From: Escherichia coli
GTDB lineage: Bacteria > Pseudomonadota > Gammaproteobacteria > Enterobacterales > Enterobacteriaceae
Length of the DNA: 64,000 nucleotides
Assembly: GCF_011045215.1 (NCBI RefSeq)
Contig: NZ_CP049201.1
Strand: one strand, 5' to 3'
Position numbers and translations under genes: made by a program. Positions within the stretch are counted from its first letter, which is position 1, and each line of letters opens with the position of its first letter. This document shows, piece by piece, positions 3,461 to 48,566 of the stretch. The notes beneath the pieces are model-generated. The model was not told the origin of the DNA and ran no database searches. It saw only the letters and a program-made list of their open reading frames with translations.

Positions 3461-4552
<1,092 letters not shown>

Positions 4553-4555
4553 TTA

Positions 4556-10699: not shown

Positions 10700-13600
10700 A
10701 TGAACAGGACCAGTCCCTATTATTTTCGCCGCTCAGTACTTTCCTTATTGATATCTGCCTTAATATATGCCCAGCCTGGAGAGGCTGCTTTCACATCAAT
10801 CGTTACTGGTATCGTAAATGGTGAAACTGTTGATGGTGATCAAATAGTAGATGAACGTGGTACAACTAATGATATTCATATCATTAATCACGGCCGCCAG
10901 ACTGTAATTGGTGGGATGTCTAATGGAAGTATTATTGAAGTTGGTGGACAACAAGATGTAGCAAGCCATAATGATTATCAGGGGCAAGCTAATAATACAA
11001 TCCTTCATGGGGGTGCACAGGTAATTTATAATGGCGGGAATTCTACCGGTACGATAATCGAGAGTGGTCATCAGCAAGTTTATAACGGTGGTACCAGCAA
11101 TGGCACGATAATCGAGAGTGGCAATCAGTACGTTTATAAAGATGGTACCAGCAATGGCACGATAATTAAGAATGGTAATTCAGTCGTCGAAGGAGGGAGG
11201 GCGAACGGGACTGTCATCGATGGTGGTAAACAAACAGTAACAACTCAGGGATATGTTGACGGTACGACGATAAATAAGTCCGGTTATCAGGACATCATGC
11301 AAGGAAGTCAGGCAAAGAATACGACAATAGATGGGGGGCGGCAGTATGTGGACTCGAGTTTTGTAGAAACCACCATCATCAAAAATGGGGGCGATCAAAG
11401 AGCATATAAGAGCCATGCGCTGAACACTACGATAGATGGAGGTCGACAGTATATTGATTCAAGTACTGCACAAATAACCACCATTAAAAATGGAGGAACG
11501 CAACAATTAATTGCCAGCCAGGCTATGATCACCTCGATTGAAGGGGGAATGCAGACGCTGGAAAGTTCGTCAATGGCGTACAATACCACGATCTATTCTG
11601 GCGGGAAGCAAATTGTTGATAACACCAGCACCTCGGATGTTATTGAAGTTTATTCCGGTGGCGTGCTTGATGTTAGTGGTGGTACGGCAACAAATGTTAC
11701 CCAGCACGATGGTGCAATTTTAAAAACAAACACTAACGGTACGACGGTGAGCGGTACGAATAGTGAAGGTGCATTCTCCATCCACAATCACGTGGCAGAC
11801 AATGTGTTGCTGGAAAACGGTGGTCATTTAGACATAAACGCATATGGTTCGGCAAACAAGACGATTATTAAAGATAAAGGAACAATGTCAGTTTTAACCA
11901 ATGCTAAAGCTGATGCGACCCGAATAGATAATGGCGGGGTTATGGATGTTGCCGGAAACGCGACCAATACCATAATTAATGGTGGTACACAGAATATTAA
12001 TAATCATGGTATTGCCACGGGCACTAATATCAACAGTGGAACGCAAAATATCAAGAGCGGCGGGAAAGCTGACACGACAAATATATCCTCCGGGAGCCGG
12101 CAGATTGTTGAGAAAGATGGTACGGCAACTGGCAGCAATATTAGCGCTGGAGGCTCGCTGATTGTCTATACCGGCGGTATTGCACATGGGGTTAACCAGG
12201 AGACGGGCAGTGCTTTAGTTGCCAACACGGGTGCAGGGACTGATATCGAAGGATACAACAAGCTCTCTCACTTCACTATTACCGGAGGGGAGGCTAATTA
12301 TGTTGTGCTGGAAAATACCGGCGAACTGACGGTAGTGGCTAAAACCTCGGCGAAAAATACTACCATTGATGCTGGCGGTAAGCTGATTGTCCAGAAGGAG
12401 GCTAAAACAGATAGCACCAGACTTAATAATGGCGGCGTTCTGGAGGTTCAGGACGGTGGTGAGGCTAAGCATGTTGAGCAACAATCCGGCGGCGCATTAA
12501 TTGCTTCCACGACCTCCGGAACACTTATCGAAGGAACCAACAGTTATGGTGATGCTTTCTACATCAGGAATTCAGAAGCTAAAAATGTAGTGCTGGAAAA
12601 CGCTGGCTCATTAACCGTCGTCACTGGTTCCCGGGCAGTTGACACGATTATTAATGCCAACGGCAAAATGGATGTTTATGGAAAAGATGTTGGCACTGTA
12701 CTCAATAGTGCTGGCACCCAAACAATATATGCCAGTGCCACTTCTGATAAAGCAAATATCAAAGGTGGCAAGCAAACGGTATATGGTTTAGCCACTGAAG
12801 CAAATATCGAAAGTGGTGAACAAATTGTTGATGGTGGGTCAACAGAGAAAACACACATCAATGGTGGCACGCAAACCGTTCAGAATTATGGTAAGGCAAT
12901 CAATACCGATATCGTCTCTGGCCTACAACAAATTATGGCAAACGGGACAGCGGAAGGTTCCATTATTAATGGGGGTTCACAGGTAGTTAATGAGGGCGGT
13001 CTGGCTGAAAACTCGGTGCTTAATGACGGCGGCACACTCGATGTGCGGGAGAAAGGCAGCGCAACGGGGATACAGCAGAGTAGCCAGGGCGCTTTGGTTG
13101 CAACCACCAGGGCGACGCGGGTCACAGGAACACGCGCGGATGGCGTCGCGTTCAGCATCGAGCAGGGTGCGGCGAACAATATCCTGCTGGCAAATGGCTG
13201 CGTGTTAACCGTGGAGTCAGACACCACTTCCGCCAAAACACAGGTCAATACGGGCGGGCAGGAGATCGTCAAAACAAAAGCCACTGCGACAGGCACGACG
13301 CTCACCGGCGGCGAACAAATCGTCGAGGGTGTGGCGAATGAGACAACGATTAACGACGGTGGAATACAAACAGTTTCGGCTAACGGAGAGGCAATAAAAA
13401 CAACGATCAATGAAGGCGGTACGCTGACAGTTAACGATAATGGCAAAGCAACAGATATCGTCCAGAACAGCGGTGCCGCTCTCCAGACGAGCACGGCTAA
13501 CGGTATTGAAATCAGCGGTACTCACCAGTACGGCACTTTTTCCATTTCCGGCAATTTAGCGACCAATGCGTTGCTGGAAAATGGCGGTAATTTATTGGTA

Positions 13601-16111: not shown

Positions 16112-17464
16112 TTATGGGTTTAACTCAAACTGTTCCCCGTTTATTAATTTTCGCAATAAGTCAAGTGCCTCAGATGAGTATTTTCCGACACCACTTTTCC
16201 CAGATTTAATGAAAACATGATAATTGTTGTCTGATGCTTTAATGTTGAAGTCGGTTAGTTTTCTTAATTTTTCGAATTCTTGATTAACATAGTGCCACGA
16301 TCCCATGTCGAGAATCCTTGCCAGATCAGACATTGTATATGGGAAACTAGCATTTAGTGCCTGCCCATTATTGAGTTCAGCGATACCATACATTTTTGCT
16401 AATGCATCATCATGCTCTGCAATATTGCGGAACATCTCAAAATCGTATGGAAGTTCTTGTTTAACAAGGGATTCTGATGCGAATGTGTACGTTCTGGCTA
16501 GAAATGCACGCACAAGTTTTGGATTAACGCTAATTTCCGGTGTATTAGATGATAACGCATCAAAAATCCAACCAAAATTATTTGCGTATATCACCTTGAT
16601 TCGAACGCTTTTATTCTCACCAACACCGATTAGCAATTCCTTTTGATGAGAACCAGTGGCCTCGCAGTCCTTACTGAAGGAGACAAGATAAATATTTGGA
16701 ATCAATGCATTATTGGGAGCGATGATTTCATCTATATCAGAGAGAATTGCCTTTATGTTTTCATCATTGATACTGTACCCAAAGAAAAACAAGGGGTGTT
16801 CAGCAAAATATGTTAGCAACTTAGCACTGATATATTTCTTACGTTTATAGAAATCAACATAATCTTCATTTGTAATAACAATACTTTCAACTTCATGACT
16901 GCTACCATGAATTTTCATGATTTCGCCATAAGATGAATAATTCACTTTAACAACGTTATGACCAACTATTGCCTGATAATTGTCAAATATTTTTTCTAAT
17001 GTGTCGTCATAATTTGTTGTGATTATTGCATGAGGTTTTACTTTCCTTAATTTCTGAACTTCCTCTGTATATTCCATGTTCGAGAAATCAACGGAGTTTG
17101 ATAATTCATTCAGAATGGATGCAATTTCATGCTTAATATAAATATCTTTTGGAGTCGTTCCTTCAAAGTATGTCTCTGGATAGCGATCCTTGCCATCATC
17201 CCAAGCCCATTCAGCATAGAAGTCACAAAAATCGCTAGCAATCAAAGGTTTGTTATCACCCTTTGTTTGGCTGTAGTAACCATAAGGGCGTTTGATCAAG
17301 GGGCATATTTCCGCTAGTTGCTTTAATAGACCTTCCCAGTCAGGCGCTTTTATATATCGTTGTGAAATACCTGCACCCATGAATAAAATGGGTTGGACTT
17401 GTAAGTTTTCAAGGCAAGATTTAACATCTTCGATTATTTCTTCTTGATATTCCGTAAAGTCCAT
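16112..17464 (-). CDS. Stand-alone SIR2-family (ThsA-type SIR2_2-like) protein with unknown C-terminal domain; candidate NAD+-depleting anti-phage effector
   Basis: 450-aa AT-rich ORF; sirtuin-like motifs ILFMGAGIS (GAGxS), ITTNYD, KIHGSSHE (HG) and FFFGYSINDENI line up with ThsA SIR2-domain motifs as I recall them; no partner gene within ~0.7-0.9 kb. Confidence 0.7.
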   Translation of the reverse strand: MDFTEYQEEIIEDVKSCLENLQVQPILFMGAGISQRYIKAPDWEGLLKQLAEICPLIKRPYGYYSQTKGDNKPLIASDFCDFYAEWAWDDGKDRYPETYFEGTTPKDIYIKHEIASILNELSNSVDFSNMEYTEEVQKLRKVKPHAIITTNYDDTLEKIFDNYQAIVGHNVVKVNYSSYGEIMKIHGSSHEVESIVITNEDYVDFYKRKKYISAKLLTYFAEHPLFFFGYSINDENIKAILSDIDEIIAPNNALIPNIYLVSFSKDCEATGSHQKELLIGVGENKSVRIKVIYANNFGWIFDALSSNTPEISVNPKLVRAFLARTYTFASESLVKQELPYDFEMFRNIAEHDDALAKMYGIAELNNGQALNASFPYTMSDLARILDMGSWHYVNQEFEKLRKLTDFNIKASDNNYHVFIKSGKSGVGKYSSEALDLLRKLINGEQFELNP

Positions 17465-18352: not shown

Positions 18353-19357
18353 TCACAATCTTCCGCCGTTTTTGACTGTTGCAGATATACTTTTAGCAGG
18401 TTTTAAATGCCTGGAGATTTCTTTCTGTTCTCGACGGATTTTGTATGAATTAATTTCTTCATAATCCTTGTGTTTATTTATTTTTGATAAATCAACCAAG
18501 AGATTATTTCTTATCATCCACTTTACAATTCGCTTGTTGATATCTTTATAGAGAGGGCCGCCTTTATATTTATAGAAGTGAATATCATGAATTTCACTGA
18601 TGAAATCAAGTATGGATAAGATTTCTTTATAATCACCAATGTAACTGTTAATGGTGAAATGGTCTTTATTAAGTTCTATTTTGAATCCATGTTCAGAAAG
18701 GTAATACAAGAAAAAGGCTGAGTCGAGATCACAAAAATCTACATGCAGCGTTCTTCTGTCAAATTTATCAATATGCGAGAGAATGATATCATGTAATTCA
18801 TAATCATATACATTTTCAATAAATCCTTTCCCTGAATGATCAATTTGATTGACATTGCATCCAGCATCTATTGCTACGGATAAAACTTCCGGGGAAAGGG
18901 GCATGAAGAGAATATTCATTCCTTTTTTATCGATGTGATTTATATCACAACCAGCATTAATTAATTCTGTCAATCCTTCAGCATTCCTGTAATGTTCAAA
19001 AATGCATGTGTAGCCATTAGTATCCGTATGCGAGGTGTCTAAACCCAGTTCAATCAGTTTCTTCAGTATTTCTGGATTTTTTTGATGAAAGAGCGCATTT
19101 TGCCCATGTCCGTTGATATGGTGTATATTAATTCCATAACTGAGCAGGCAATCCATGGCTTCCAGGGTTCTGCAGGCAAAAATGGCATTGTTGCCGTTAC
19201 TGTTAACAGCATTGATGTCATAGCCTATTTTTAAAGCTTTCTTTATATCATCAGGTGATCTTGCATTGAAGAATGATTCAGAAATGGCAAGGTCTAATGC
19301 CTTTTCTAATAATCCCTTTTGTAATAAGGATATGACTAATTCCATAAACACCCCCAT
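18353..19357 (-). CDS. Ankyrin-repeat protein (paralog 1)
   Basis: 334-aa ORF with repeated G.DIN..D..G.N.LF blocks (~33-aa periodicity) and a C-terminal region shared with ORF 31629-32573 (..VKWMIRNNL../..IKWFIRNDI..). Confidence 0.7.
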   Translation of the reverse strand: MGVFMELVISLLQKGLLEKALDLAISESFFNARSPDDIKKALKIGYDINAVNSNGNNAIFACRTLEAMDCLLSYGINIHHINGHGQNALFHQKNPEILKKLIELGLDTSHTDTNGYTCIFEHYRNAEGLTELINAGCDINHIDKKGMNILFMPLSPEVLSVAIDAGCNVNQIDHSGKGFIENVYDYELHDIILSHIDKFDRRTLHVDFCDLDSAFFLYYLSEHGFKIELNKDHFTINSYIGDYKEILSILDFISEIHDIHFYKYKGGPLYKDINKRIVKWMIRNNLLVDLSKINKHKDYEEINSYKIRREQKEISRHLKPAKSISATVKNGGRL

Positions 19358-23439: not shown

Positions 23440-24151
23440 GGACCCGACTACATGATTTACCCGTTAACTTAATACGGCTCACGCCGGAACCCCTTCGGAA
23501 AAATCCTTTCTGCTTCAGCGAGTGAGTGCTGTGGGCACTCAGCGGCGCTGCAAGAGGGATTAAACGTTGGGTTTTCATCTGACGGGTAAAAATAATCTAC
23601 ATATATCTGTCGTCGGGGGCGTGAGCCGGTGCGTAGCACTCTCTCAGAAAAATTCCTGAAGGGGTTTTATCTGAAATCTGGAAACTACCTGGCTTTTGAA
23701 AAAAGGAAGTGGTAATGCAATCGATCGGACTCAACATTGCAACAGCGTAAGCTGTTTCCAGTATTAAAAGAATAAATAGTTGTCATTTTAAAATAAAATA
23801 TTTTCAATTTTGTATTGATTTAAATTTTAAAGCTGATAGTACTTAATTATAAAAACAAAAAAGGAGAGGGTTATGAGTAATATTTTTGTTTCTTCTCAGG
23901 AAGAAAAGTTTATATTTGTTGTTGATAAATATATAACACAGCATCGCGACAGTGTTAATAACAATATTTTTTACAGAAAACTTTATGTGCTTTTCGCTGG
24001 ATACCATCTGAAGTATTTTTATTCACGGGCGCAATATCGCAATTCGTGTTATTGCGTATTCCGCTCTATTCGATCACGGATTGGCATCGAAGTTCGATCA
24101 GCGATTCGCATCCATTCGATCAACCGGGAACTTAACTTTTTCTACCGCTTT

Positions 24152-24907
24152 TTAACTCGTTTTTTCGCTGCTTTCCACTGTCGGGGGATTTTTCCTCAGG
24201 GACTCTCCCTGAAGGACCACTCTGTGTGAGTTATGTACCAGTCTGTCCAGGATGGCATCTGCTGTTGTTGGGTTCTCCATCAGACCATGCCATTTATCTA
24301 CCGGGAACTGGCTTACCACTATCGTGCTGCTTTGTCCGTAACGATCCTCTGTGATCTCCAGAAGGTCATTACACTGGGCGTTACTTAACTGTTCCAGCCC
24401 CAGATCGTCCAGGATTAGAACCTGTATTTTTTGCAACTGTTTCAGATATTTCAGCCAACTGCCATCAACACGTCCCTGAGCCAACTGTTCCAGTAATCGC
24501 CCGGTTCTACAGTACCGGACGCTGTATTTCTGTCGACATGCCTGTTCGCCCAGCGCATTGGCTATCCAGCTCTTACCGCATCCTGTCGGACCGGTTATCA
24601 GTAGGTTTTTCCTGTGGATTATGTAGTGGCCGTTCAGCAGTTCCCTCATCTGTTCAGCCCGCAGACCTCTTGAGGCCGGATAACGCAGCCCTTCCGGTGT
24701 TGCCTGATATTTCAGGCAGGCATTTTTTCTCAACCGTGCCACACGACTGTTTTCTCTGCTCAGAAGCTCGTCATCAACCAGCAGTGTCAGCCTTTCCTCG
24801 AACGACAGTTCGTCGTAAGTCTGAGGCGTTTCCCGTTGCCGTATCAGGCTCCCGGCCATCGCCGGGAGTTTCAGTTGGGTCAGTTTGTTTAACAGATTAT
24901 CACTCAT
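24152..24907 (-). CDS. istB: IS21-family helper ATPase IstB
   Basis: ORF 24152-25150; likely start MSDNLLNKL (24907); Walker A GPTGCGKS and typical IstB layout; overlaps the end of istA. Confidence 0.85.
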   Translation of the reverse strand: MSDNLLNKLTQLKLPAMAGSLIRQRETPQTYDELSFEERLTLLVDDELLSRENSRVARLRKNACLKYQATPEGLRYPASRGLRAEQMRELLNGHYIIHRKNLLITGPTGCGKSWIANALGEQACRQKYSVRYCRTGRLLEQLAQGRVDGSWLKYLKQLQKIQVLILDDLGLEQLSNAQCNDLLEITEDRYGQSSTIVVSQFPVDKWHGLMENPTTADAILDRLVHNSHRVVLQGESLRKNPPTVESSEKTS

Positions 24908-24923
24908 ACGGTTGTTCCTTCTG

Positions 24924-26489
24924 TCAGTGGTAGTAGCCAGGACCACGCAGGTTTTCATGCTCTGAAGCATATGCCGGATGTTGTTCGCCCTGGCGGGATA
25001 ACGGAAGCTCAACGTTATCCCGATGATGACGCAGCAGATTGTCGATAAAGCGTCTGTCCGGGGCGTTATAGTGCAGGGCAACGTAACAGGCCTTTTCCAG
25101 CCGTTCCGGGCCGTATTTTTTCTGAAGTGCCAGCAGACCCAGGACTGCACGGTAAGCCAGCTCCGGATGGGGTTTGGCTTTCAGCATGGATTCAACCACC
25201 CGGCCTGTGGACGGACCTGTACGGTTTCCCTGCTCGATAAGGCGTTCCGGTGTCCATGTCCCATGCCGCCGGTGGCGTTCTGGCATGTGAAGCGGATTGG
25301 TTGTGTGTTTATATTCATGTGTGCTGCGCGGATGTTGCGCCACACACTGCCCCTTGTGCCAGAGCTGTACCACCGACTGCCCCACCTTCAGTGACAGACG
25401 CTGACCGACCAGTTCGTGTGGAACGGAGTACCAGTGACGGGCATATTCAACGTGGTAGTCAGGGCCAACCTTCACGGCTTTGTATTCCGTGTATTCATAA
25501 GGCTCCAGAGGCAGCGGAGAGAGTGCTGGTGCATCCAGCATGCGGAAGCGTTCTGCGCGGGTTTGATTACCGTATCCCTTCATTGGTCGGTTATTCATGT
25601 CCGTCAGCAACTCCCGAAGGCGTGCATTCAGCGCCCTGAGCGTGTGGAAGGTTTCATTACGGATGCGGGCAAGAAGCCATCGCTCGACGATGAGGACGCC
25701 GTTTTCTGCTTTTGGTTTATCTTTAGGTTTGCGCGGGCGGGCCGGGATAATAACCGTGCCATAGTGCTCAGCCAGCGCCTGATAACTGTCGTTGATGACA
25801 GGCTCATAGCGATCGGCTTTTTTCACTGCGCTTCTGAGGTTATCGGGGATGAGCAGCTTCGGTACGCCGCCCAGGAAGGTCAGGCAACGGCTGTGGGCAT
25901 TTAACCATGACATCATGTCCTGACCTTCGCACGCTTCAACATAGGTATAGTTGGACGCCCCCATTACAGCCACGAAGATTGCCACGCGGCGTATCTCTCC
26001 GGTGTCCGGATTAATAACAGGGACCGTAGGACCACAGAAGTCGATAAAGAGCTTTTCGCCAGCACGATGCTCCTGTCGCATGGAGAGGCGTCGCGTTTTT
26101 TTCCACTTCCGGTAGCAACGGCAGAAGTGTGAGTATCCCATCGCTTTGTCACCCGCCTGTGCCTTGTATTCCATCCACAACAGTTGGCGCGTCACGCCAG
26201 GTTTTCTCATTTCCGTATCGAAGTACAGCATGTCAGGCATAACAAGCTCTGACGCAGAGGTGTCTTTGGGCGGGAAAATGAGTTTCTCCAGCGTGTCATG
26301 GGATATATCAGCAGGTAATGGCCATGACAGAGAAGAGGCTTTGAAGCGGGCAAGAACCTCAAAAACGGTTGAGGCGCTGATGTGTAACGTCAGTCCGATA
26401 CAACGGTTAGTCAGCTTCTTATCGAACTTGAGCTGAAGGATCTTAAAACAAGTTTCCATAGTGCTCCTGGATTTTCTCTTTTTGGACAT
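24924..26489 (-). CDS. istA: IS21-family transposase IstA
   Basis: ORF 24924-26591; likely start MSKKRKS (26489); N-terminal HTH followed by integrase-like catalytic core; paired with istB. Confidence 0.8.
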   Translation of the reverse strand: MSKKRKSRSTMETCFKILQLKFDKKLTNRCIGLTLHISASTVFEVLARFKASSLSWPLPADISHDTLEKLIFPPKDTSASELVMPDMLYFDTEMRKPGVTRQLLWMEYKAQAGDKAMGYSHFCRCYRKWKKTRRLSMRQEHRAGEKLFIDFCGPTVPVINPDTGEIRRVAIFVAVMGASNYTYVEACEGQDMMSWLNAHSRCLTFLGGVPKLLIPDNLRSAVKKADRYEPVINDSYQALAEHYGTVIIPARPRKPKDKPKAENGVLIVERWLLARIRNETFHTLRALNARLRELLTDMNNRPMKGYGNQTRAERFRMLDAPALSPLPLEPYEYTEYKAVKVGPDYHVEYARHWYSVPHELVGQRLSLKVGQSVVQLWHKGQCVAQHPRSTHEYKHTTNPLHMPERHRRHGTWTPERLIEQGNRTGPSTGRVVESMLKAKPHPELAYRAVLGLLALQKKYGPERLEKACYVALHYNAPDRRFIDNLLRHHRDNVELPLSRQGEQHPAYASEHENLRGPGYYH

Positions 26490-26625
26490 TGACGTCTCCA
26501 CTGGTTTAAACACGGCAATGGAGACTGTGGTGAAAAGAGTTAATTCCCGGAGTGACTGGCGAATTCCAATCAATGATCGGAAGTATGCCAAATCGTGATC
26601 GATTGTGATGCCAACATATCCTTAC

Positions 26626-28100
26626 CCATAAATCCGAGTGATGTTATTCTGTTGATAAATTAACCATAATTTAGAGGAACTATGGAAAACTGGGTTATTA
26701 AGGAGCTGGAATCTCTGAATGTTGGTGATATCAGGCTCGAAAAGCGAATAAAGCACGTTCTCAGTGTGCTTAGCCGTTCACCAAAGGAAAGTATTCCCGT
26801 ATCCTGCCGTACCTGGAGTGAGACAAAAGCTGCTTATCGTTGCTTTTCCAGTGATAAAATTTCAGCCGATAAAATCATGGCTCCCCATAAGAAAAATATC
26901 ATCGAAAGGACTAAACAGTTTAAACGGGCTCTGGTTTTACAGGATACGACTGAACTAAATTATTCTGGTCAAAAAAAGAAACAGGGCGTCGGTCCCAGAC
27001 GACATGAAAATGAGCGAGATTTGTTTATTCACCCTCAATTGGTTATAAGTGATTCAGGTATTTGCTTAGGGGTTTATGATGATTATCAATGGTTCAGAAA
27101 AGAACTCAAAACTCAGAAACAAAGTCGTAAAGAAATAACTAATGATTCACTTCACAGGAAACATATCAGTGAGAAAGAAACAGGACGGTGGATAGAAGGA
27201 TATAAAAAAGCAACAGAACTGGCTAGGTCCTGTCCTGATACCCAGATAATTTCTGTTTCAGACCGTGAAGGTGATATTTACGACCTCTTTGAGAGTGCAG
27301 AAAATGAAAGTGGGATAAAGGCTGACTGGCTCGTAAGAATGAAGAGCATTAACCGGGCTATACTGAATTCATCAGGAAAAAGAGACTCATTACTCCTGAA
27401 TGAAAAAATGATGCAGATTTTGCCACAGCAGATAATTGAGTTTACCCTTCCGGAAGGACGAGGACAACCTTCCCGCAAAGTCCAGCAGGAGCTACGCTTA
27501 GCAAGGTTGACGCTACATCCACCCACCGGTCGAAGAGGAAAGTTACGTTGTTCTCCGGTAACGGTAACTGTATTACTTGCAAAGGAAATAAATGCTCCAG
27601 AAAGTGTCCAGCCATTAGTATGGTGGCTAATGAGTAGTGTACCTCCAGAAAAGCTGACGGAACCCGCACAGCTTATTCAATGGTATTTATTACGCTGGCA
27701 GATTGAAGTTTTCTTTAAGGTATTAAAAAGCGGATGTCAGGTTGAGAAATTACAACTTGAGACATTTGAACGCACAAGGAACTGTCTGGCCTTATACCTT
27801 ATAATCTCATGGAGAATACTTTATCTTAGCTCATTGTATAAAATGGTTCCGGAGGAACCCTGTGATTTAATTTTCGAAAAGAAAGAATATGAGTATCTCT
27901 GGATATTGGTAGAGAATACGCCTCCACCTGAAAACATACCGAATATAAGAACGGCGGTTTTAATGCTTGCAAGATTAGGAGGATATCTGGCAAGAAAAAA
28001 TGATTCGCCTCCAGGCCCTAAGACTATATGGTCAGGATTAACACAATTAATGCTGTCAATTAATGCCATAGAAATAGCCCAGAAAACTTGTGGGTAAGGG
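26626..28100 (+). mobile_element. IS4-family insertion sequence nested in the IS21-family left end
   Basis: Single transposase ORF flanked by imperfect terminal inverted repeats (CCTTACCCATAA... / ...TTGTGGGTAAGG); both flanks carry IS21-type repeat motifs; boundaries approximate. Confidence 0.6.
26682..28097 (+). CDS. IS4-family DDE transposase
   Basis: 471-aa ORF containing the IS4 Y-x2-R-x3-E-x6-K signature (YLLRWQIEVFFKVLK). Confidence 0.85.
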   Translation: MENWVIKELESLNVGDIRLEKRIKHVLSVLSRSPKESIPVSCRTWSETKAAYRCFSSDKISADKIMAPHKKNIIERTKQFKRALVLQDTTELNYSGQKKKQGVGPRRHENERDLFIHPQLVISDSGICLGVYDDYQWFRKELKTQKQSRKEITNDSLHRKHISEKETGRWIEGYKKATELARSCPDTQIISVSDREGDIYDLFESAENESGIKADWLVRMKSINRAILNSSGKRDSLLLNEKMMQILPQQIIEFTLPEGRGQPSRKVQQELRLARLTLHPPTGRRGKLRCSPVTVTVLLAKEINAPESVQPLVWWLMSSVPPEKLTEPAQLIQWYLLRWQIEVFFKVLKSGCQVEKLQLETFERTRNCLALYLIISWRILYLSSLYKMVPEEPCDLIFEKKEYEYLWILVENTPPPENIPNIRTAVLMLARLGGYLARKNDSPPGPKTIWSGLTQLMLSINAIEIAQKTCG

Positions 28101-28195
28101 TATGTGATGCCAAACTGTGATCGGAGATGGATGCCAAATCATGATCGATTCGAATGCCAAACTGCGATCGATTCAGATGCCATTTTGCAGTTATC
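28100..28195. repeat. Displaced IS21-family subterminal repeat block (3-4 copies of ATGCCAAA..TGATCGATT)
   Basis: Read directly: GTGATGCCAAACTGTGATCGG, GGATGCCAAATCATGATCGATT, CGAATGCCAAACTGCGATCGATT, CAGATGCCA. Confidence 0.6.
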
Positions 28196-29820: not shown

Positions 29821-31050
29821 TTATGGTGCAGGATAGGGGTTATTTTTAACTAATTGTTCTTTAATGGGATTTGTTGTCATGGAATGACAGGGTGTCAGAA
29901 GATGCAGGTGCAGGATTTGGTGGAAAGGATGTGCAGTGGCATGTAACAGAGACATGCCCCTGCGCCTGAGAAGTGCCACAATATGGCCGAGCAATACAAA
30001 CCACGAATGCAGACGACGCTGGCGGGGTATCTGACGAGCTGTATTGTGCAGTTTGCTCCTGAGTTGAATGACACCCACTGTTTCCTGTTGTCTTTCCAGA
30101 CGAATTTTTTCTTCAAGCTGAAGGATTTTCTCCAGAATCGTTTCCCGGTTTGCAGCCTGTTCTTCAGGCTCGCATGATGGCACTGGCACTGGCACTGGCA
30201 CTGGCACTGGCACTGGCACTGGCACTGGCACAGTCTGCTGTTGCTCTTTTTTCAGTAAAGCCAGGTGCTCTGGTGTAAAATCAATCTGTGTTTGCAGAGA
30301 AGACCAGCCATACTTTTTTCCAAGCTGAGACGCTTTAAAGGCAATGCCCTGGTACTGAAATGAAAAGCCGTTCATTTTTCCCGTTGAGGCGATATTAGGT
30401 TTACAGTTCACGCCTTCCTTTTCCAGCATAGTGATAAAAGTCAGCAAATCAGGGCGGCCGGTTAACGCATTATCAATCAGGCTCTGCAGAGTGGACCTGG
30501 GGCAGGGAGTTGTCGTTCTTTCAGCCATCATCAGCTCGTTGCGGGAAGGCTTTCTTTTCTCCTGACTATGACTACTGATTGCAGATGTGGTTTGAGTGAG
30601 TTTGTGGACTTTCTCCAGCTCGCTGATAATCCGGGTACTGATAAGATTTTCATTTTTCCCAAGGTACAGCTTCCCACCGACCATGTTAATTCTGTTAGCT
30701 ATTATATGGATATGCTGCCCGTCCGAATCATCGTGCATGATATAGCAGCGAAGATGGGTTTCAGTGAATCCCATCCGGGTCATATAATCGTCAGCGAATG
30801 CCGCCCATTGTCTGACTGACAGTGTTTCTCCCTTTGGCAGGCGAAGCGAATTATGCCAGACAGGTTTGGCGACACCGGGGCGCAGTAGTCTTGTGCCTTC
30901 AAATTCACTGATAAGTTCAGCAGCAGTGCTTCCCGTCATGTTGCCACCGATAATATAAGGCGTGATTTTGTGGTGAGATCCTGACTTAAGGCTATAGAGA
31001 ACAACACCTGCGAACTGTTTACCCCGCTTTATTTTCTGCATACCTTTCAT
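29821..31050 (-). CDS. Mobilization relaxase (MobA/MobL-like) with internal (VP)n linker; C-terminal tail of doubtful authenticity
   Basis: Three-histidine relaxase-type motif HDDSDGQHIHIIANR; start overlaps the mobC-like stop (ATGA at 31047-31050); low-complexity tail after the VP repeat. Confidence 0.65.
   Translation of the reverse strand: MKGMQKIKRGKQFAGVVLYSLKSGSHHKITPYIIGGNMTGSTAAELISEFEGTRLLRPGVAKPVWHNSLRLPKGETLSVRQWAAFADDYMTRMGFTETHLRCYIMHDDSDGQHIHIIANRINMVGGKLYLGKNENLISTRIISELEKVHKLTQTTSAISSHSQEKRKPSRNELMMAERTTTPCPRSTLQSLIDNALTGRPDLLTFITMLEKEGVNCKPNIASTGKMNGFSFQYQGIAFKASQLGKKYGWSSLQTQIDFTPEHLALLKKEQQQTVPVPVPVPVPVPVPVPVPSCEPEEQAANRETILEKILQLEEKIRLERQQETVGVIQLRSKLHNTARQIPRQRRLHSWFVLLGHIVALLRRRGMSLLHATAHPFHQILHLHLLTPCHSMTTNPIKEQLVKNNPYPAP
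30178..30231. repeat. Perfect hexanucleotide tandem repeat (TGGCAC)x9 inside the relaxase gene
   Basis: Read directly; encodes a run of 8-9 Val-Pro dipeptides on the minus strand. Confidence 0.95.
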
Positions 31051-31628: not shown

Positions 31629-32573
31629 TTACAATCTACGTTTTACTGGCATTAAAGAGATTGTTTGTTTCATAATTTCGCTAAGTTTCTTTTTCTCATG
31701 TTCTGCTATATATTTACAAATCTCATCATGTCGAATATGCTGTTCCAGTTGTTTTTTATCCATTTTGATGTCATTGCGGATAAACCATTTAATGGTTTCA
31801 ATGTCCCCGCGTAAATCATAACCTCGCAGTACAATATGGCGAAAATGTGTGTTGCTGATATCTGTCTTCTTCTTTAGTTCACTGAAGAAAGAGCTCATTT
31901 CATTTTCATTGGCACTTAGATAAACCTGGCAGTTATCAGAGATAGTAAAGTTAAGGTTTTTCTTCTGAAGCAAATCCATTATCTGCAGACTTTCGCTGTT
32001 GAGGTAGTTGAAAATTACTGGACTGCTATCCTTCATACTAATATGACGAATGAGCATTTTGGCTTTGAAATCGCCTAATGAATAGCAAATTTCAAAAATA
32101 CCGTGACCCTGGTTATCTCTGTGGTTTATATCGCAACCGGCCTGTACCATCAAATCAAAGATAGAGTGATTTTTTACGTAAAAAAGTATTGTTCTTCCGC
32201 ATTTATCCACATTGTTGACATTAATTCCAGCATTGATCAGGGTTTTGCAACAGGATATATTATCAGCTAACGAGCATAAACAGGTTTGGCCGAGACCATT
32301 TTTATGGTGTATATCTACGCCGGAATCAATCAATTTTTTCAGTATGTGAGGATTTCGCTGGTTAAACAAAACATTGTGACCATAGTTGTCAGCATGGTTA
32401 AAATCTATTCCTGCTTTAACCAGAGTGTCAATCATTCTTGGGTTTTTACAGTAAAACAGTATATTTCTTCCAAACGAATCCAGTGTATTAATATCGGAGC
32501 CTGCATTAATGCAAGCCTGAATGTCTTTTGGAGTTTTACAAGAGAGTAATGTATTTATTGCGTTGTTATTCAT
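31629..32573 (-). CDS. Ankyrin-repeat protein (paralog 2)
   Basis: 314-aa ORF with ankyrin-like repeats (GSDINTLDSFGRNILFY..., GIDFNHADNYGHNVLF...) and the shared C-terminal region; 16 bp downstream of ORF 32589-33029. Confidence 0.7.
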   Translation of the reverse strand: MNNNAINTLLSCKTPKDIQACINAGSDINTLDSFGRNILFYCKNPRMIDTLVKAGIDFNHADNYGHNVLFNQRNPHILKKLIDSGVDIHHKNGLGQTCLCSLADNISCCKTLINAGINVNNVDKCGRTILFYVKNHSIFDLMVQAGCDINHRDNQGHGIFEICYSLGDFKAKMLIRHISMKDSSPVIFNYLNSESLQIMDLLQKKNLNFTISDNCQVYLSANENEMSSFFSELKKKTDISNTHFRHIVLRGYDLRGDIETIKWFIRNDIKMDKKQLEQHIRHDEICKYIAEHEKKKLSEIMKQTISLMPVKRRL

Positions 32574-32588
32574 AATTTTTCTCCTCTG

Positions 32589-33029
32589 TTAAGCGACTAA
32601 TCTGATATAGTTGTCATGGTTGGTTTTATATTCCTTTATTTTTTTAATGTCTTCGTAAATTCGAGCGAGTGAAAACCATGAGATCTCTTTCAACATGTTT
32701 TTGTTGCTTACATACAAAATGTTACCACCGCGAAATGAAAAAGCATTATGGAATGTACTTTCATTCGTCGTTTTGAGAAATCGAATGAAATTTTTTATTG
32801 TCTCTTTTTTGTTCATGTTATAAGAGGTGAATGTATAGATAGAGAATACGGTTAAAATATTTCTCTTCGAGACCATATGTCTTGAGAAATAATCGAAATA
32901 AAATCTTTGCTCCTGAGTGTCACTTTTGCAGAAAAAAGAAAATTGTGGATTATATAATCTATAAAGATCTGCGTTCTTTTTTGTTTTGGCGAGATAGTTA
33001 GTCAGGCTTGGATATTTTGTTTTATTCAT
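32589..33029 (-). CDS. Hypothetical protein (146 aa), probably co-transcribed with ankyrin paralog 2
   Basis: ORF ends 16 bp upstream of the ankyrin gene start on the same strand; no recognised domain. Confidence 0.45.
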   Translation of the reverse strand: MNKTKYPSLTNYLAKTKKNADLYRLYNPQFSFFCKSDTQEQRFYFDYFSRHMVSKRNILTVFSIYTFTSYNMNKKETIKNFIRFLKTTNESTFHNAFSFRGGNILYVSNKNMLKEISWFSLARIYEDIKKIKEYKTNHDNYIRLVA

Positions 33030-33389
33030 TTTAGTTCTCCTTTATTTAATTAACAAAGGAAATATATATTATTAAATAAACAAAATGCAAATATATTTTT
33101 ATATTTATTTAATTAAATAGTTATATTTTTATTATATTTCATATAAGGTGTTGTTTTTCATTGTTATTTTATTTTTATCAAAAAGTGCTGTGTTTTATTT
33201 GATTGATTTGGTTTGAGAGTAGTGATTGATATAGTATGAATTGGCGATGAGGGTGTTTTAAAAAATAAATTTATCAAAGTGCAAAGGTGCAATGTGGGGC
33301 TTTGTATTAAATTAATGATGTTAGCGCCCCTTGGCTATCTAACTAAAGGTTAAAGCCAAGGGGAGAGTGTTCAGGCAGATTCAATTCAT

Positions 33390-34371
33390 AATCTTTTTTT
33401 TGTAATTGCTTTACAGGTAACTGGTTGAAGCGTTGTTCGTAAAACCTTTTGCTCTCTCTGTAATTTGTCCTGGAGGATTTCTTCATAAAAGTAGCGTTCT
33501 TTTAGCGATTCTATATCAACTTTTATATCATTACGTATTAACCATTTAATTAGCAGTCTTCCTGCATAGTGCGTCAGTAGATATGTACTGCTTATGTAAA
33601 ACCAAACATGACTAATGTCTGTCAGCTTCTTTAGTTGTAAAATTAATTTTTTAGCGTCGGCATTTGTTGGTGTTATGATACATTTATCACTTATCTCAAA
33701 TTCATTTTTTGTTTTATAAGCAATGACAACAGCTCAATTGATTTAAATGTAATGTTCTTGAGTACAATTTTTGAACTATTTGTAAGGTGAATATTACGGA
33801 TAAAAAAGCGCATGTAGTTATCATTTTTAGATTCCCAGTGCGTATATTTACCAACTATGCTATTATTTTCTGACTGCCAGTGATCGAATGCTGTCTGTCC
33901 ACTTATATTTTTATGATTAATGTCGCAACCAGCCTCAATTAGTGCATCGTACACATATCCTTCAAATGGAATGAAAAGAAAGGAATTGCCATATCTATCT
34001 TTGGTATGGATATCTAGTCCTGCTTTGATAAGATATTTTACTAACCCTGGTGAAACATCAATATGTTGAATCGCAAGGGTGCCTGACTTATTCCGGTGGT
34101 TAACATTAATACCATTGCTGACAAGAAGTTCCACTGTTTCAACATTTTGAGCATAGAATAATGCATTATTACCGTCATTATCCAAGTGGTGAATGTCAAT
34201 GTCAGCGTCAATCATTGCCTGTATAGCTTCAGGTACATTACAGGTAAAAAGAGCAGTTTGACCTTTACTATTGCACATATTTATATCCATGCCAGCCTTA
34301 AGGCAACGAAGGACACCATTTTTAGACTTTACACGGAATAGGTTATTTTTATTATTTTCTCTTGATATCAT
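33390..34371 (-). pseudogene. Ankyrin-repeat paralog 3, frameshifted at a homopolymer tract
   Basis: 226-aa ORF stops at 33691-33693; the paralog-consistent C-terminal region (...KNEFEISDKCIITPTNADAKK...LLIKWLIRNDIKVD...) continues in another frame; shift maps to the T6 tract at 33705-33710; 3' end approximate. Confidence 0.55.
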
Positions 34372-34890
34372 TGTTTATCTCCTTTTTTGTTGTTTTCAAG
34401 ATATTAATGACACCAGATTTTACGGTATTCAAATTTATTTTTGTTTTATTAGGGGGTATCTGATTTGGTTTGCTTAAGGTTATTCTTAACTTAATGGAAC
34501 ATAGGGACTTTAAGGTTATCCTATGTGATGTGGATTAACCATTTTCACAAGAATATTTATCCATATTGGAGCTAATCTGTATAAAGGAGATAATTAGAGG
34601 CTCAGATATTAATACTATAGAGAGTAATGCTATAGGATATGGAAAAGATCATGTAATATAATGGTGGTTATTAATGTTCATCTTAATTTTGGAAATTAAA
34701 TGAGTAGTGTTTTTTATGAGGTTTTTTGCTGTTGATAATTCTTATTAAAATTTGAAGAGCATCCTTTAAGTTATTCGGCTTGAGGATGCTCATTTAAAAT
34801 TTAAGCAGCGTAGTCTTTTTCAACAGCCAGGAAGGGGTGATGCTGCCAACTTACTGATTTAGTGTATGATGGTGTTTTTGAGGTGCTCCA

Positions 34891-35133
34891 GTGGCTTCTG
34901 TTTATATCAGCTGTCCCTCCTGTTCAGCTACTGACGGGATGGTGCGTAACGGTAAAAGTACTGCCGGACATCAGCGCTATCTCTGCTCTCACTGCCGTAA
35001 AACATGGCAACTGCAGTTCACTTACACCGCTTCTCAACCCGGTACGCACCAGAAAATCATTGATGTGGCCATGAATGGCGTTGGCCTCAACACGATTTTA
35101 CGTCACTTAAAAAACTCAGGCCGCAGTCGGTAA
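34891..35133 (+). CDS. insA: IS1 InsA (deletion variant, 80 aa)
   Basis: [80 protein letters not shown]. Confidence 0.85.
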
Positions 35134-35177
35134 CCTCGCGCATATAGCCGGGCAGTGACATCATCGTCTGCGCGGAA

Positions 35178-35555
35178 ATGGACGAACAGTGGGGCTACGT
35201 CGGGGCTAAATCGCGGCAGCGCTGGCTGTTTTACGCGTATGACAGGCTCTGGAAGACGGTTGTTGCGCACGTATTCGGTGAACGCACTATAGCGACGCTG
35301 GAGCGTCTTATGAGCCTGCTGTCACCCTTTGACGTGGTGATATGGATGACGGATGGCTGGCCGCTGTATGAATCCCGCCTGAAGGGAAAGCTGCATGTAA
35401 TCAGCAAGCGATATACGCAGCGAATTGAGCGGCATAACCTGAATCTGAGGCAGCATCTGGCACGGCTGGGACGGAAGTCGCTGTCGTTCTCAAAATCGGT
35501 GGAGCTGCATGACAAAGTAATCGGGCATTATCTGAACATAAAACACTATCAATAA
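35178..35555 (+). CDS. insB: IS1 InsB segment (expressed as InsAB' by -1 frameshift)
   Basis: [22 protein letters not shown]...[15 protein letters not shown] matches the IS1 InsB C-terminal region. Confidence 0.85.
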
Positions 35556-35600
35556 GTTGGGACCATTACCAAATAGTTTATATGCTAAAAATTTAGGGAA

Positions 35601-38600
35601 TCATTTTCCTAATTCTCCAGCTAAAAGTTCAGCCTGCTTCAAAACAGTCTCTGTGGCGAGCAATGACATATCAGGCGGATAACCATATTTTTTGAGCAGA
35701 CGTTTTACCACCACGCGAATTTTTGCTCTTGCTGCTTCTTTCACTGTCCAGTCAAGACTGACATTGTTGCGGATAGCCTCCGTAAGTACGACTGCCAGTT
35801 CTCGTAGTTTTTCCTTTTCCATTAACTCGCGAGCACTGTCGTTATCTGCAACAGCAGAATAGAAGGCATATTCATAAGCGCTGAGGTTTAACTGGCTGGC
35901 AAGGCTGTCAGATTCCTGGATAGTCTTGGCAAGCTTGATTAGCTCATCAATTACCTCCGCTGCTGTCAGTACCTTGTTCTGGTAGCCATTGATTGCAGAG
36001 GTCAGCATATCAATCAGTTTTTTGCCTTGGGTGATACTTTGATTCGAGCGAACTTTAATCTCGTCAGAAAGCAGTTTTTTAAGCGTTTCCAAAGCAATAT
36101 TTCTGTGTTGGTAATCCTTCATTTCCTGAAGGAATTCTTCAGAAAGAACGGAAATATCTGGCTTTTGTATCCCAGCAGCGTCAAAAATATCAACAACTTT
36201 ATCGGTAACCAGAGCCTGATCGATAGTCTGTTTTACCCGAACTTCCAGACTGTCATTGTGTTCTTCTTCTGATCCGTCTGAGTTTTCAGTAAATTTATTC
36301 AGTCTGGCTTTTACTGCCTGGAAGAATGCTACTTCGGGTGCCGCTTCCATTGCTTTATCGTGCGGTGTCGCCAATGCAAATGCCTGCGACAAGGCTGCAA
36401 CCGCAGCCAGGAAACGCATTTTACCTTTACCGTTATCCAGCCCTAAAATATGGTTTTCTGATTCAAGAATAATTGTCAGGCGTTGTGAAGTAGTTGCGGC
36501 AAAGTAAGCTTTGTAATCGTAGCCATGCATCATGCCTTCCAGGATTTCCAGCTTTTCCTGCATGAGCGTTACAGCTTCTTCCTGAACCTCAGCAGGATCT
36601 CCACGTCCACCTGCATCAGAGTAAAAGGAGAGGGCTTCTTTTAAATCAGAGGCAATGCCCAGATAGTCAACAACCAGACCGCCTATCTTATCTTTATACA
36701 CACGGTTCACACGGGCAATTGCCTGCATGAGGTTGTGGCCTTTCATTGGTTTGTCGATATACAGCGTATGCATGCTGGGAGCGTCGAAGCCGGTTAACCA
36801 CATATCACGCACTATCACCAGTTTCAGCTTGTCGTCGTCATCCTTCATACGATTAGCCAGAACCTGACGTTCTTTTTTTGTGGTGTGGTGTTTAGCGATT
36901 TCTGGTCCGTCAGCAGCAGAAGAGGTCATGACGACTTTAATCACGCCATCATTTAGATTATCGCTGTGCCATTCAGGTTTTAACTCTATGATTTCTTTAT
37001 AAAGTTCAGCAGCAATACGACGGGACATGGTGACAATCATGCCCTTGCCATGATCGGCATTAGATTTTAAGCGCTGTTCAAAGTGCTGAACCATATCCGC
37101 CGCAATAGCTTTAATACGTTTTGAACTGCCAATCAAACCTTCGATTCTGGCCCATTTAGACCGTTCTTTCTGGGTAAGCGTCAGCTCGTCTTCGTTAAAC
37201 TCATCGTCGAAGTCTTCAATTAGCTGGCGACCTTCGTCACTGATGGCAATTTTGGCAAGACGGCTTTCATAGAAGATACGCACGGTTGCACCGTCTTCTA
37301 CGGCCTGTGAGATATCGTAGATATCAACGTAGTTACCAAAAACAGCAGGTGTGTTTACGTCCGTTTTTTCTATGGGGGTTCCGGTAAAGCCAAGATAGGT
37401 AGCATTGGGCAAGGCATCACGCATATATTTGGCAAAGCCGTAAACGGTGCGTTTACCTGTTACGTTGCCTTCGCTGTCTTTCACGTCAACTTCTTTGGCG
37501 CTGAAACCGTATTGTGAACGGTGGGCTTCATCAGCGATAACGACAATATTGGTTCTGTCTGACAACAACTCATAGATATTGCTGCCATCATTAGGCTGGA
37601 ATTTTTGAATAGTGGTAAACACCACACCACCAGAGGCTACGCGCAAATATTCTTTGAGTTCTTCCCGGTTGTCGGCCTGTTTTGGTGTCTGACGAAGTAG
37701 CTAGGTCGCGGAAGAGAACGTACCGAATAGCTGATCATCCAAATCGTTACGGTCAGTAATCACAACAACTGTCGGATTATCCAGCGCCAGCACAATTTTC
37801 CCGGTATAAAACACCATCGAAAGCGATTTACCGGAACCCTGAGTATGCCAGACTACGCCCGCTTTGCGATCTCCGGTTTTTTGCGCATTAACAAGATCTT
37901 TACTGTTACGTCCCTGCTGGCGCAGTGCCACTTCGGCAGAGGGGGAGTCCGCATTCACCGCTGAGGCACGAATAGTGGAAAGAACTGCTGCATTGACCGC
38001 GTAGTACTGGTGATAAGCCGCCATTTTTTTAACAGTACGGATACTGATAATCCCTTTGCTGTCTTCATGTTTGCTGGCCTCAAACACGATAAAGTGGCGG
38101 ATCATATCCAGCAGCGTTACAGGATTAAGCAACCCCTGTAATAAAACTTCAAGCTGTGGTTGGGTACTGGTGGCTTGCGTTTTACCGTTAGCAGTTTTCC
38201 ACGTCATATAACGACTGAAATCGGCAGAAACCGTCCCCGCTTTGGCTTCCAGCCCGTCAGATATCACATTAAAAGCATTGTAGTTAAACAGACCGGGGAT
38301 TTGGTTCTGATAGGTTTTAATCTGATTATAGGCACCTGTTACCGTAGCATTTTCGTCAGCGGCATTTTTAAGTTCGATAACGACTAATGGCAGGCCGTTG
38401 ATGAATAAAATAAGATCAGGTCGGCGGGTATGATTGCCTTCTTTGATGGTGAGCTGATTAATGACCAGAAATTCATTATTAGTGGGATCGTTAAAGTCGA
38501 TCAGGCAGGCCAGCTCTCCTTGTGTATTACCATCCTTACTGACTTCGATATTGATCCCTTCGGTCAACAGGCGATGAAAGGCCAGATTGTTTGCCATTAG

Positions 38601-38840
38601 ATCAGGTGTGCTGATCTGCATCACCTGTTTCAGGGCTTCCTCACACTTCTGTTCACTAAGGTGCGGATTCAGGCGTTGTAGAGCAATACGCACCTTATCT
38701 TCAAGGATAACCTGCTGATAGCTACGTAACGGATTGATTCCACTGGGTTCAATGTCCGGGCCGTAAACATACTCATAGCCCAGCCCTTGCAGGTGCTCAA
38801 TTGCCATTACTTCAATATCGGATTCGGTCATCTTTGCCAT
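35601..38840 (-). pseudogene. hsdR: Type I restriction enzyme R subunit HsdR interrupted by an in-frame amber codon
   Basis: ORFs 37701-38840 (N-terminal, helicase motif I GSGKS) and 35601-37646 (C-terminal) are in the same frame, separated by a single TAG at 37701-37703 (...[33 protein letters not shown]...). Confidence 0.8.
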
Positions 38841-46807: not shown

Positions 46808-48037
46808 TTATGCGGCAATAACTTTGCATTTTTGAGACGAAACATAGTCACTCCACCATTGCATGAGAACCACCCGTTCAGTGAGATACTCTGCACGATT
46901 GTAGGCTGCAATTATTTCATCTTTCTTCGAGTGGGCAAGGGCGGCTTCTAAGACATCAGTCCTAAACTTGCCAGACTCCTCAGCAGCCGTTCTAGCAATG
47001 GATCGCATACCGTGAGCTACAAGCTCACCTCCGAAACCCATACGGATTATGGCCGCATTAGCTGTTTGTTCATGCATGTGATTGAGTGGAGCTTTGATAC
47101 TGGGGAACACCCACTCTCTATGCCCGCTGATGACTTTCATTAAATCCAAAACTCGCAAAGCTTCTTTGCTCAGTGGAACTTTGTGAGGCTTCTTCATTTT
47201 CATAAACTCCGCCGGGATGTTCCACATGCCAGTTTCAATATCAATATCTGACCATCTTGTGCGAACAGCTTCACCTGGGCGAACCCATGTGAGAAGTTGC
47301 CACTCAATCAGTAGCCTTGTTTCCAAACGGATAGAAGCATTGTTTAGAGCAACCAAGAAGCGAGGGAGTTCGGAAGGGGGTAATGCTGGCATATTCTGTT
47401 TTTTTGGCTTGCTGAACCGTTGCCCCAGGTTGTCTGCCGGGTTGAATTCTATGAGTTCTTCTGTTGCTGCATAGCGGAAAATTTCATTCAGGCGGGATAT
47501 GATGCGGCGAAGTGTTTCAAGGACACCTCGTTTTTCTATGGGTTCTAAATGCTGTTTAAGCATTTTAGGGCGAATCTCCTTAATTGGGGTATCACCCAAT
47601 GTGGAAAAGATATTTCTCTCTAGGCTTCGCCAGATGTCGTTAGCATGATCTTGGGAGATGCCTGACGTTTTGACTTTCTCATCAAGCCACTTCTTGGCTA
47701 CTGCTTGAAATGTATGTTCCGTGGCATCTTTCAGTGCATTGGCTTTTTGGTTGTTATGAACTTGGGGGTCTATACCATTTGTAAGCAACGACAAGTATTC
47801 ATCACGTAAAGCTCGTGCCTTCGCAAGTGTAAGGTGAGGATAGGTTCCTAAGCTCACCTTAGTTCGCTTTTTGGTCACAGGCACTGCATATCTGAAATAC
47901 CAATTTTTCTTCCCTCCCTTCGCCAGGGGAGCGATTCGCAACAGCAAACCATCGCCGTCAAAAAGGTTAACCTCTTTTTCGGCAGGTTTGGTGCTTTTGA
48001 TTTCAGTGTCAGTGAGCTTCTTAGCGATTTTGGCCAT
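46808..48037 (-). CDS. P4-type tyrosine integrase
   Basis: ORF 46808-48118; likely start MAKIAKKLTDTEIK (48037, ~409 aa); C-terminal catalytic-domain residues (...HGMRSIARTAAEE...); located 166 bp from the ssrA 3' end, same orientation. Confidence 0.85.
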   Translation of the reverse strand: MAKIAKKLTDTEIKSTKPAEKEVNLFDGDGLLLRIAPLAKGGKKNWYFRYAVPVTKKRTKVSLGTYPHLTLAKARALRDEYLSLLTNGIDPQVHNNQKANALKDATEHTFQAVAKKWLDEKVKTSGISQDHANDIWRSLERNIFSTLGDTPIKEIRPKMLKQHLEPIEKRGVLETLRRIISRLNEIFRYAATEELIEFNPADNLGQRFSKPKKQNMPALPPSELPRFLVALNNASIRLETRLLIEWQLLTWVRPGEAVRTRWSDIDIETGMWNIPAEFMKMKKPHKVPLSKEALRVLDLMKVISGHREWVFPSIKAPLNHMHEQTANAAIIRMGFGGELVAHGMRSIARTAAEESGKFRTDVLEAALAHSKKDEIIAAYNRAEYLTERVVLMQWWSDYVSSQKCKVIAA

Positions 48038-48203
48038 GTTTGGGACCCTCGATTTTAGGACCCATCTTCGTGGGTCCCATTCAGGGTGCCATAACTCGTA
48101 GTTCTCAGCAATTCTCACTAGACTACAATAGACGTAAAAAAGCCCGCAGAGCTTGTGCTGTGCGGGCTTAGTAGACTTTACTGAACTTCAGTACATCAAT
48201 ATT

Positions 48204-48566
48204 TGGTGGAGCTGGCGGGAGTTGAACCCGCGTCCGAAATTCCTACATCCTCGGTACTACATGCTTAGTCAGTCTTTACATTCGCTTGCCAGCTGCGGAC
48301 GGACACGCCACTAACAAACTAGCCTGATTAAGTTTTAACGCTTCAACCCCAGGCAGGGCTTCCACGCGATCTCTTTTGGGTTTGACCTCTCTTGATCCCC
48401 GTCCTAAGAGCGGAGGCTAGGGAGAGAGGGCTCTAAGCAGGTTATTAAGCTGCTAAAGCGTAGTTTTCGTCGTTTGCGACTATTTTTTGCGGCTTTTTAC
48501 GAGGCCAACCGCCCCTCGGCATGCACCTTGGGTTTCGCAAATCCCGTCGAATCCAGAATCAGCCCC
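48204..48566 (-). ncRNA. ssrA: tmRNA (SsrA)
   Basis: Reverse complement reads GGGGCTGATTCTGGATTCGACGGGATTTGCGAAACCCAAGGTGCATGCCGAGGGGCGGTTGGCCTCGTAAAAAGCCGCAAAAAATAGTCGCAAACGACGAAAACTACGCTTTAGCAGCTTAA...GCTCCACCA, i.e. E. coli tmRNA including the ANDENYALAA tag-encoding segment; 363 nt. Confidence 0.97.

Follow-up and report, generated by a model that had tools for sequence, protein, structure and literature searches.

Simple-sequence contingency loci comprise phase-variable genes of Haemophilus, Neisseria, Campylobacter, and Helicobacter. Runs of A are also the sites of programmed −1 frameshifting and transcriptional slippage, for which dnaX of E. coli (A AAA AAG) and insAB' of IS1 provide the examples. 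In enterobacterial mononucleotide-run frameshift pseudogenes, a single base has been lost from an A:T run, close orthologues are intact, and the product is truncated. The rate at which E. coli acquires indels depends exponentially on the length of the run (PMC8510543).

The locus described here is an accessory ankyrin-repeat gene (ankyrin paralogue 3, ank3) on a stretch of 64,000 nucleotides of an Escherichia coli chromosome (GCF_011045215.1, contig NZ_CP049201.1), hereafter the window. Its allele is a homopolymer-slippage frameshift of a well-known kind, and its resemblance to a contingency locus is superficial. It shares with the frameshift pseudogenes the single-base loss, the intact close orthologues, and the truncated product, and differs from them in no essential respect; the allele is very young, and RefSeq lists its 226-residue product as an ordinary protein. 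As in contingency loci, ank3 contains an intragenic homopolymer in which a change of one base toggles the frame, and both +1 and −1 alleles recur in nature. Unlike in those loci, the run is only seven As long, which is within chance, the ON state is nearly fixed, variants are as frequent as control runs would lead one to expect, and the run is not conserved in paralogues.

The likeness to dnaX and insAB' is that the A-run is read by tRNA-Lys and that a −1 slip would give exactly the wild-type protein. The differences are that orthologues of ank3 need no frameshift, and that neither a tandem slippery heptamer nor a stimulatory element was identified; because of these differences, any recoding at ank3 would be accidental leakage. 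With bacterial ankyrin-repeat proteins at large (Pfam Ank_2 and Ank_4), ank3 has its ankyrin repeats in common. The frameshift most probably arose recently, in this strain alone, and put out of action a gene that is normally functional.

Reading frame and base call

An earlier note on this DNA placed a frameshift in the third of three ankyrin paralogues, at a T6 tract at 33705–33710, and was correct in doing so. The tract is T6 on the plus strand and A6 on the coding minus strand. The truncated minus-strand ORF (34371–33691) has 226 codons and ends ...SLLIKQKMNLR at a TAA (33691–33693); its product is exactly WP_250848393.1, which comprises five ankyrin repeats, the first beta-alpha unit of the C-terminal domain, and four last residues, MNLR, that are out of frame. 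When shifted by one base, the frame has no stop and reads ...KNEFEISDKCIITPTNADAKK... up to the native TGA at 33386–33388. This 3' part of the gene (33386–33704, minus strand; residues ~224–328) is now out of frame and still open, running ...KNEFEISDKCIITPTNADAKKLILQLKK...IKWLIRNDIKVD...KAITKKRL, and it includes the IKWLIRND motif and the ...KKRL end.

Adding one T to the tract gives a 328-codon frame that ends at 33386, and the protein restored in this way is an exact match to P0021 in public assemblies. The loss of one base thus brings a stop five codons on and removes the last third of the protein. The proposal that an A7 would restore the paralogue-consistent frame holds as well, the T7 orthologues being intact 987-nt CDSs, and the name 'paralog 3' is apt, with paralogues at 18353–19357, 31629–32573, and 33386–34371. 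The tract lies within the ORF, and changes in its length switch the frame: A7 is in frame, and A6 and A8 each meet a stop within one to five codons. Two other runs in the gene (minus strand) served as controls, an A8 run at 33394–33401, six bases ahead of the native stop and in frame in the window, for the scaling of ±1 variants with run length, and an A6 run at 33647–33652 as the second control tract.

T7 is the ancestral state of the tract and T6 the derived one, because carriers have T7 and annotated orthologues have intact 987-nt CDSs. The ankyrin gene is present in 307–308 of 5,426 complete E. coli genomes, and is chromosomal in every case. Among 299 complete E. coli genomes with the gene, 287 have T7 and none has exactly T6 or T8. 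T7 is present in each of the 47 complete genomes that carry the window-type allele (80-nt probe, matching an 81-nt span with one gap and otherwise identical), and a probe for a divergent, ~95% identical allele found exactly T7 in 240 of 252 genomes and exactly T6 or T8 in none. T7 was also read directly in all six fetched loci, and, with T5–T9 allowed, it was found in 10 of 10 metagenome contigs by pattern scan and in Citrobacter youngae, Kluyvera cryocrescens, and Pseudocitrobacter vendiensis (one genome per species). Orthologues at L001, L002, L005, L006, and L039–L044 have a continuous CDS over the site (987 nt, 328 aa), and the 1-bp deletion is the gene's sole indel when it is compared with L001, L002, and L039–L044. 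Comparison of the same locus in related strains, a check that the earlier note had suggested, thus identifies T7 as the norm and T6 as private to one clone.

It must be considered whether the strain is truly T7 and T6 is a homopolymer undercall in sequencing or assembly. Homopolymer indels are a classic error of long reads, and the T6 protein is also carried by some assemblies that are full of indels (L029 and L031, with 10–12 indel columns per 5 kb and fragmented neighbouring genes). The 226-residue product occurs on a 5.41-Mb NCBI contig and on a 35-kb Logan contig of run SRR11014969. This Logan assembly was made independently and agrees with the window at every base of 14,170 nt, T6 included; the two are assemblies of the same reads, to both of which a systematic homopolymer miscall could be common. 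Evidence against such a miscall comes from the rest of the window. Relative to L001, over 12.3 kb, there are only two indels, one at the tract and one that spans a single unit of a 6-bp repeat, and relative to the closest core genome (L018), over 15 kb, there is one, outside homopolymers; these figures led us to reject the idea of an assembly ridden with homopolymer errors. No other homopolymer indel was found in the ~27 kb of the window compared with close relatives, and T5–T8 runs elsewhere in the ankyrin gene have the same lengths as in relatives. The genes around it are full length except hsdR, which is broken by a substitution rather than an indel. Because a second assembly gives T6 and the window is free of other homopolymer indels, a sequencing error is unlikely; the base call is probably real, and an artefact seems quite improbable.

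Age of the lesion and variation at the tract

The lesion is restricted to one clone. The intact form of the same allele (P0021, 328 aa, with R126 and F190) is found on at least 24 contigs with the same island arrangement. Between the sister locus L040 and the window, 10,171 nt contain only three differences, namely at the tract, position 37703, and position 35065. The difference at 37703 turns a CAG codon of the type I restriction gene hsdR (35601–38840, minus strand) into TAG (37701–37703, Q380*), which is private to this strain and splits the gene into ORFs of 379 aa and 681 aa; HsdR has its full 1079 aa in all sister islands. The difference at 35065 is a Met/Val missense change in InsA of IS1. 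Two of the three differences between the window and its sister therefore inactivate genes.

Downstream of the tract, no further disabling change was found in the ankyrin gene, and the frame is still open. Because of this, and because only three differences separate the window from its nearest sisters, ank3 is, judged from its sequence, a young pseudogene and not a decayed one. The earlier note had named a decayed pseudogene as one of two readings: the pseudogene stands and is better supported than the switch, but the decay does not, with a single lesion and an open downstream frame. Two related ideas were rejected. R126 and F190 are not signs of decay after inactivation, as the intact sister allele P0021 has both, and the joint inactivation of hsdR and ank3 is not a general pattern, as clean T6 and T8 carriers elsewhere have an intact 1079-aa HsdR.

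The frequency of length variants was assessed by exact-sequence look-ups of the products that T6 and T8 would give in several allele backgrounds, and likewise of those expected from ±1 changes at the A6 and A8 runs of the gene; contig counts pool NCBI, ENA, and Logan assemblies, so that one isolate may be counted repeatedly. In the commonest allele (L002, at least 1000 intact contigs), two −1 and no +1 variants were found at the A6 run (total 2), seven and nine at the A7 focus tract (total 16), and 23 and seven at the A8 run (total 30). These counts climb with run length, and fit the exponential dependence reported for E. coli (PMC8510543). The L004 allele (999 T7 contigs with a 289-aa, IS2-cut form, from which IS2 has removed the A8 run) has nine T6 and 15 T8 variants at the focus tract. 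The L001 allele (290 intact T7 contigs) has two T6 variants there, with seven −1 and one +1 at the A8 run, and the L005 allele (235 intact T7 contigs) has no T6 or T8, with two −1 and no +1 at the A8 run. Variants at the focus tract occur in both directions and on at least four flanking SNP haplotypes, with clean assemblies among the carriers, and OFF alleles make up ~1–2% of contigs. Genuine recurrent ±1 slippage does occur at the tract, but rarely.

The A8 run at 33394–33401 is itself length-polymorphic. Its A7 form, with a 342-aa product, is found on 23, seven, and two contigs in the different alleles, and its A9 form, with a 330-aa product, on seven and one. These variants alter only the last residues of the ankyrin protein.

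The tract does not stand out from its surroundings. The gene is 34% G+C and encodes 9% lysine, and codon shuffles of the restored gene predict 1.1 runs of seven or longer where two are observed (P = 0.30), so that there is no excess of such tracts over chance. At the homologous position, ank2 has an A5 run and ank1 has none, and homologues P0048 and P0057 (59% and 43% identity) also lack the run, with QKG and KQG, respectively, at the position. ON and OFF lengths are not both common beyond what ordinary runs display, as the absence of exact T6 and T8 from the 299 complete genomes indicates. The gene is also lost by another route: in 28 of 40 carrier genomes, sampled evenly, its last ~50 codons have been replaced through insertion of IS2. 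The IS2-cut product (289 aa, WP_001356251.1, 999 contigs) is represented by L004 and L007, that is, E. coli Ecol_517 and Ec-U11, and the part affected is equivalent to ~33386–33544 of the window.

These results bear on the other reading offered in the earlier note, a slipped-strand on/off switch. On that reading, the A-run would be a contingency tract that frequently toggles the ankyrin gene between ON (A7) and OFF (A6, A8), and the strain would have been caught OFF. A tract inside an ORF, where ±1 toggles the frame, is what a switch requires, T6 and T8 alleles do occur in both directions in several backgrounds and on at least four flanking haplotypes, and the gene lies in a defence-rich island, where switching could benefit costly genes. 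However, the gene is ON in more than 98% of carriers, the frequency of variants tracks run length over the A6, A7, and A8 runs of the same gene, and a run of seven is within chance for a gene of this composition. Neither the paralogues (A5 or no run) nor the 59% and 43% homologues (QKG, KQG) have kept it, and loss by IS2 insertion in 28 of the 40 sampled genomes also counts against a switch. E. coli proficient in mismatch repair is not known to switch A7 runs at the rates of phase variation. Because four tests failed (excess over chance, balance of ON and OFF, excess over control runs, and conservation in homologues), the tract is to be seen as an ordinary mutational weak spot that is not maintained for switching rather than as a contingency locus; frequent switching is very improbable, and the earlier suggestion is unsupported. 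A slower version would make the A7 run and the A8 run close to the stop a toggle that works at low frequency on an evolutionary scale, through which lineages shed and later regain the ankyrin protein as costly defence-island cargo; it takes its basis from recurrent ±1 slippage in both directions across at least seven allele or haplotype backgrounds. This, too, is very doubtful. If it is true, E. coli, which is not known for simple-sequence switches, would show contingency behaviour at the level of populations, and the hsdR nonsense mutation that co-occurs in this strain would reflect selection for lower defence.

A further alternative accepts the frameshift but holds that the gene is still useful, either because the ankyrin-only 226-aa protein is active or because −1 ribosomal or transcriptional slippage supplies a low level of full-length protein. 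The five ankyrin repeats are all kept, and tRNA-Lys slipping by −1 from one AAA to the AAA that overlaps it would give exactly ...KQKNEFE...; IS1, a copy of which adjoins the ankyrin gene, uses an A-run for −1 frameshifting. Traces of full-length protein with the exact wild-type sequence are possible, through such a slip or through RNA polymerase adding an extra A. Nevertheless, all orthologues are in frame with A7, so that nothing has evolved to promote recoding and the site is not a programmed frameshift, and no X XXY YYZ tandem-slippery heptamer is present, since CAA precedes the run. The cut also falls inside a predicted compact domain, on which purifying selection is as strong as on the ankyrin part. 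Continued use of the frameshifted gene is extremely unlikely.

The preferred explanation, a recent loss of function in one strain, can be set out as a sequence of steps. Strand slippage during replication of the A7 run would have removed one A:T pair; the deletion is observed directly, and slippage is inferred, because replication is known to slip at mononucleotide runs. Ribosomes would now read ...KQK, four out-of-frame codons (MNLR), and then TAA, giving a product of 226 instead of 328 residues. This product would keep five ankyrin repeats, but two thirds of the conserved C-terminal alpha/beta domain would be gone, and with them the IKWLIRND motif and the basic residues of the ...KKRL end. 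Conservation and the structural model suggest that it is most likely non-functional, while its complete set of ankyrin repeats means that it might conceivably retain some binding activity. The run is one of the gene's mutational weak spots, and reversion is possible in principle, at ordinary mutation rates only.

The ankyrin family and its island

The three ankyrin paralogues are 29–30% identical, and those other than ank3 are intact: paralogue 2 (314 aa) lies at 31629–32573 and paralogue 1 (a 334-aa ORF) at 18353–19357, both on the minus strand. All three have five ankyrin repeats in the N-terminal part, the motif K-W-x-I-R-N in the C-terminal region, and ...RL at the very end. The repeats pass the Pfam gathering thresholds for Ank_4 (PF13637, 60.5 bits against 22.7) and Ank_2 (PF12796, 49.3 against 27.3). 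An AlphaFold2 model of the restored protein (mean pLDDT 82.8) places the five repeats at residues ~10–170 and a confident compact alpha/beta domain at 180–315. The frameshift cuts this predicted C-terminal domain at residue 223, after its first strand-helix unit, and 106 residues are lost with the lesion, among them the K-W-x-I motif that is invariant in the family. Comparison of 95%-identical alleles gives a dN/dS of ~0.15, with values of 0.11–0.20 for the ankyrin part and 0.15–0.16 for the C-terminal part. Because dN/dS is low in both parts, purifying selection is shown, at the sequence level, to maintain the whole of the intact protein, the part lost here as well.

The C-terminal domain has no relative that could be recognised: neither Pfam nor BFVD gave a match, and HMMER, run over the full set of 1.84 billion cluster representatives, returned only 22 relatives. 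A search of plasmids (PLSDB) gave one weak match (31% identity), so that the family is essentially absent from plasmids, and our literature search found no paper on this ankyrin family or on the ankyrin genes of this island. Family members are located on integrase-bearing islands, next to defence-type genes.

Several observations concern the wider family. A 146-aa ORF without a Pfam match (32589–33029, minus strand) ends 16 nt upstream of paralogue 2 (31629–32573, minus strand), and the same pair, with homologue P0053 as the ank2-type member, is found on a metagenome contig (L049), which suggests that the 146-aa gene and the ank2-type gene form a two-gene unit. All full-length family members end in ...(K/R)(K/R)RL or ...GGRL (33386–33391, 31629–31634, and 18353–18358 in the window; also P0049, P0053, and P0054), and a 141-aa island gene, WP_000065074.1 (L001, 822–1247), likewise ends ...VVRKRL. 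A basic C-terminal tail common to several cargo proteins of a mobilisable element might be a recognition or export signal.

The window is part of an E. coli chromosome, and its right end, with smpB, recN, ffh, and aroF, matches the closest complete genome at 99.4% identity. The ankyrin island is integrated at the tmRNA gene ssrA (48204–48566, minus strand), beside which lies a tyrosine integrase gene (46808–48118). The tmRNA locus is defence-island hotspot #9 of E. coli, at which integrative mobilisable elements reside (PMC10121019). The ankyrin island at this gene is itself integrative and mobilisable, and is rich in defence genes. Besides the tyrosine integrase, its cargo includes a serine recombinase, two ParB/RepB-like genes, the type I restriction-modification genes hsdMSR, a copy of IS1, and a MobA/VirD2-type relaxase with a NikA-like partner. 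A terminator scan gave no hits between ank3 and the next gene.

The island also carries a SIR2-like gene at 16112–17464 (minus strand; Pfam SIR2_2; PADLOC PDC-S25, E = 4e-77) that adjoins ankyrin paralogue 1, and the same pairing is found in E. coli C (L002). In L005 and L006, an anti-phage system, Kiwa (kwaA and a kwaB-like gene, 4463–6039), lies between the ankyrin gene and hsdR, at the place where the window has a degenerate copy of IS1 (34860–35560). The relaxase gene (29821–31050, minus strand) contains a perfect (TGGCAC)x9 repeat at 30178–30231 that encodes a (Pro-Val)n linker; compared with the window, there is one copy fewer in L001, two fewer in L039, and four fewer in L043, in islands that are otherwise near-identical, and the repeat is thus genuinely length-variable, in frame. 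A block at ~24053–28189, made up of an IS21-family element (istA/istB-like, 24152–26591) and a Tn5/IS4-like transposase (26682–28097), interrupts a 141-aa hypothetical gene, which is intact in L001 and L039. Outside the compared island, the left part of the window carries a tRNA-Met gene (7588–7663) and an AIDA/pertactin-type autotransporter adhesin of 1620 aa (10571–15433, plus strand).

Significance for annotation and for the family

By itself, the finding is of little weight, being one more strain-specific frameshift in an accessory gene. For annotation, it means that WP_250848393.1 (226 aa) should be treated not as a protein in its own right but as the 328-aa protein in a truncated allelic form. 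Counting ±1 variants at runs of differing length within one gene also offers a cheap test that separates a generic slippage hotspot from a contingency tract.

A more interesting lead than the frameshift is the small, uncharacterised family to which the gene belongs, whose members combine ankyrin repeats with an orphan alpha/beta domain ending in ...RL. The family is represented by three paralogues per island, is under purifying selection, and is carried by integrative elements at the tmRNA defence hotspot. A role for these proteins in phage defence or in the transfer of the elements that carry them is a candidate idea.
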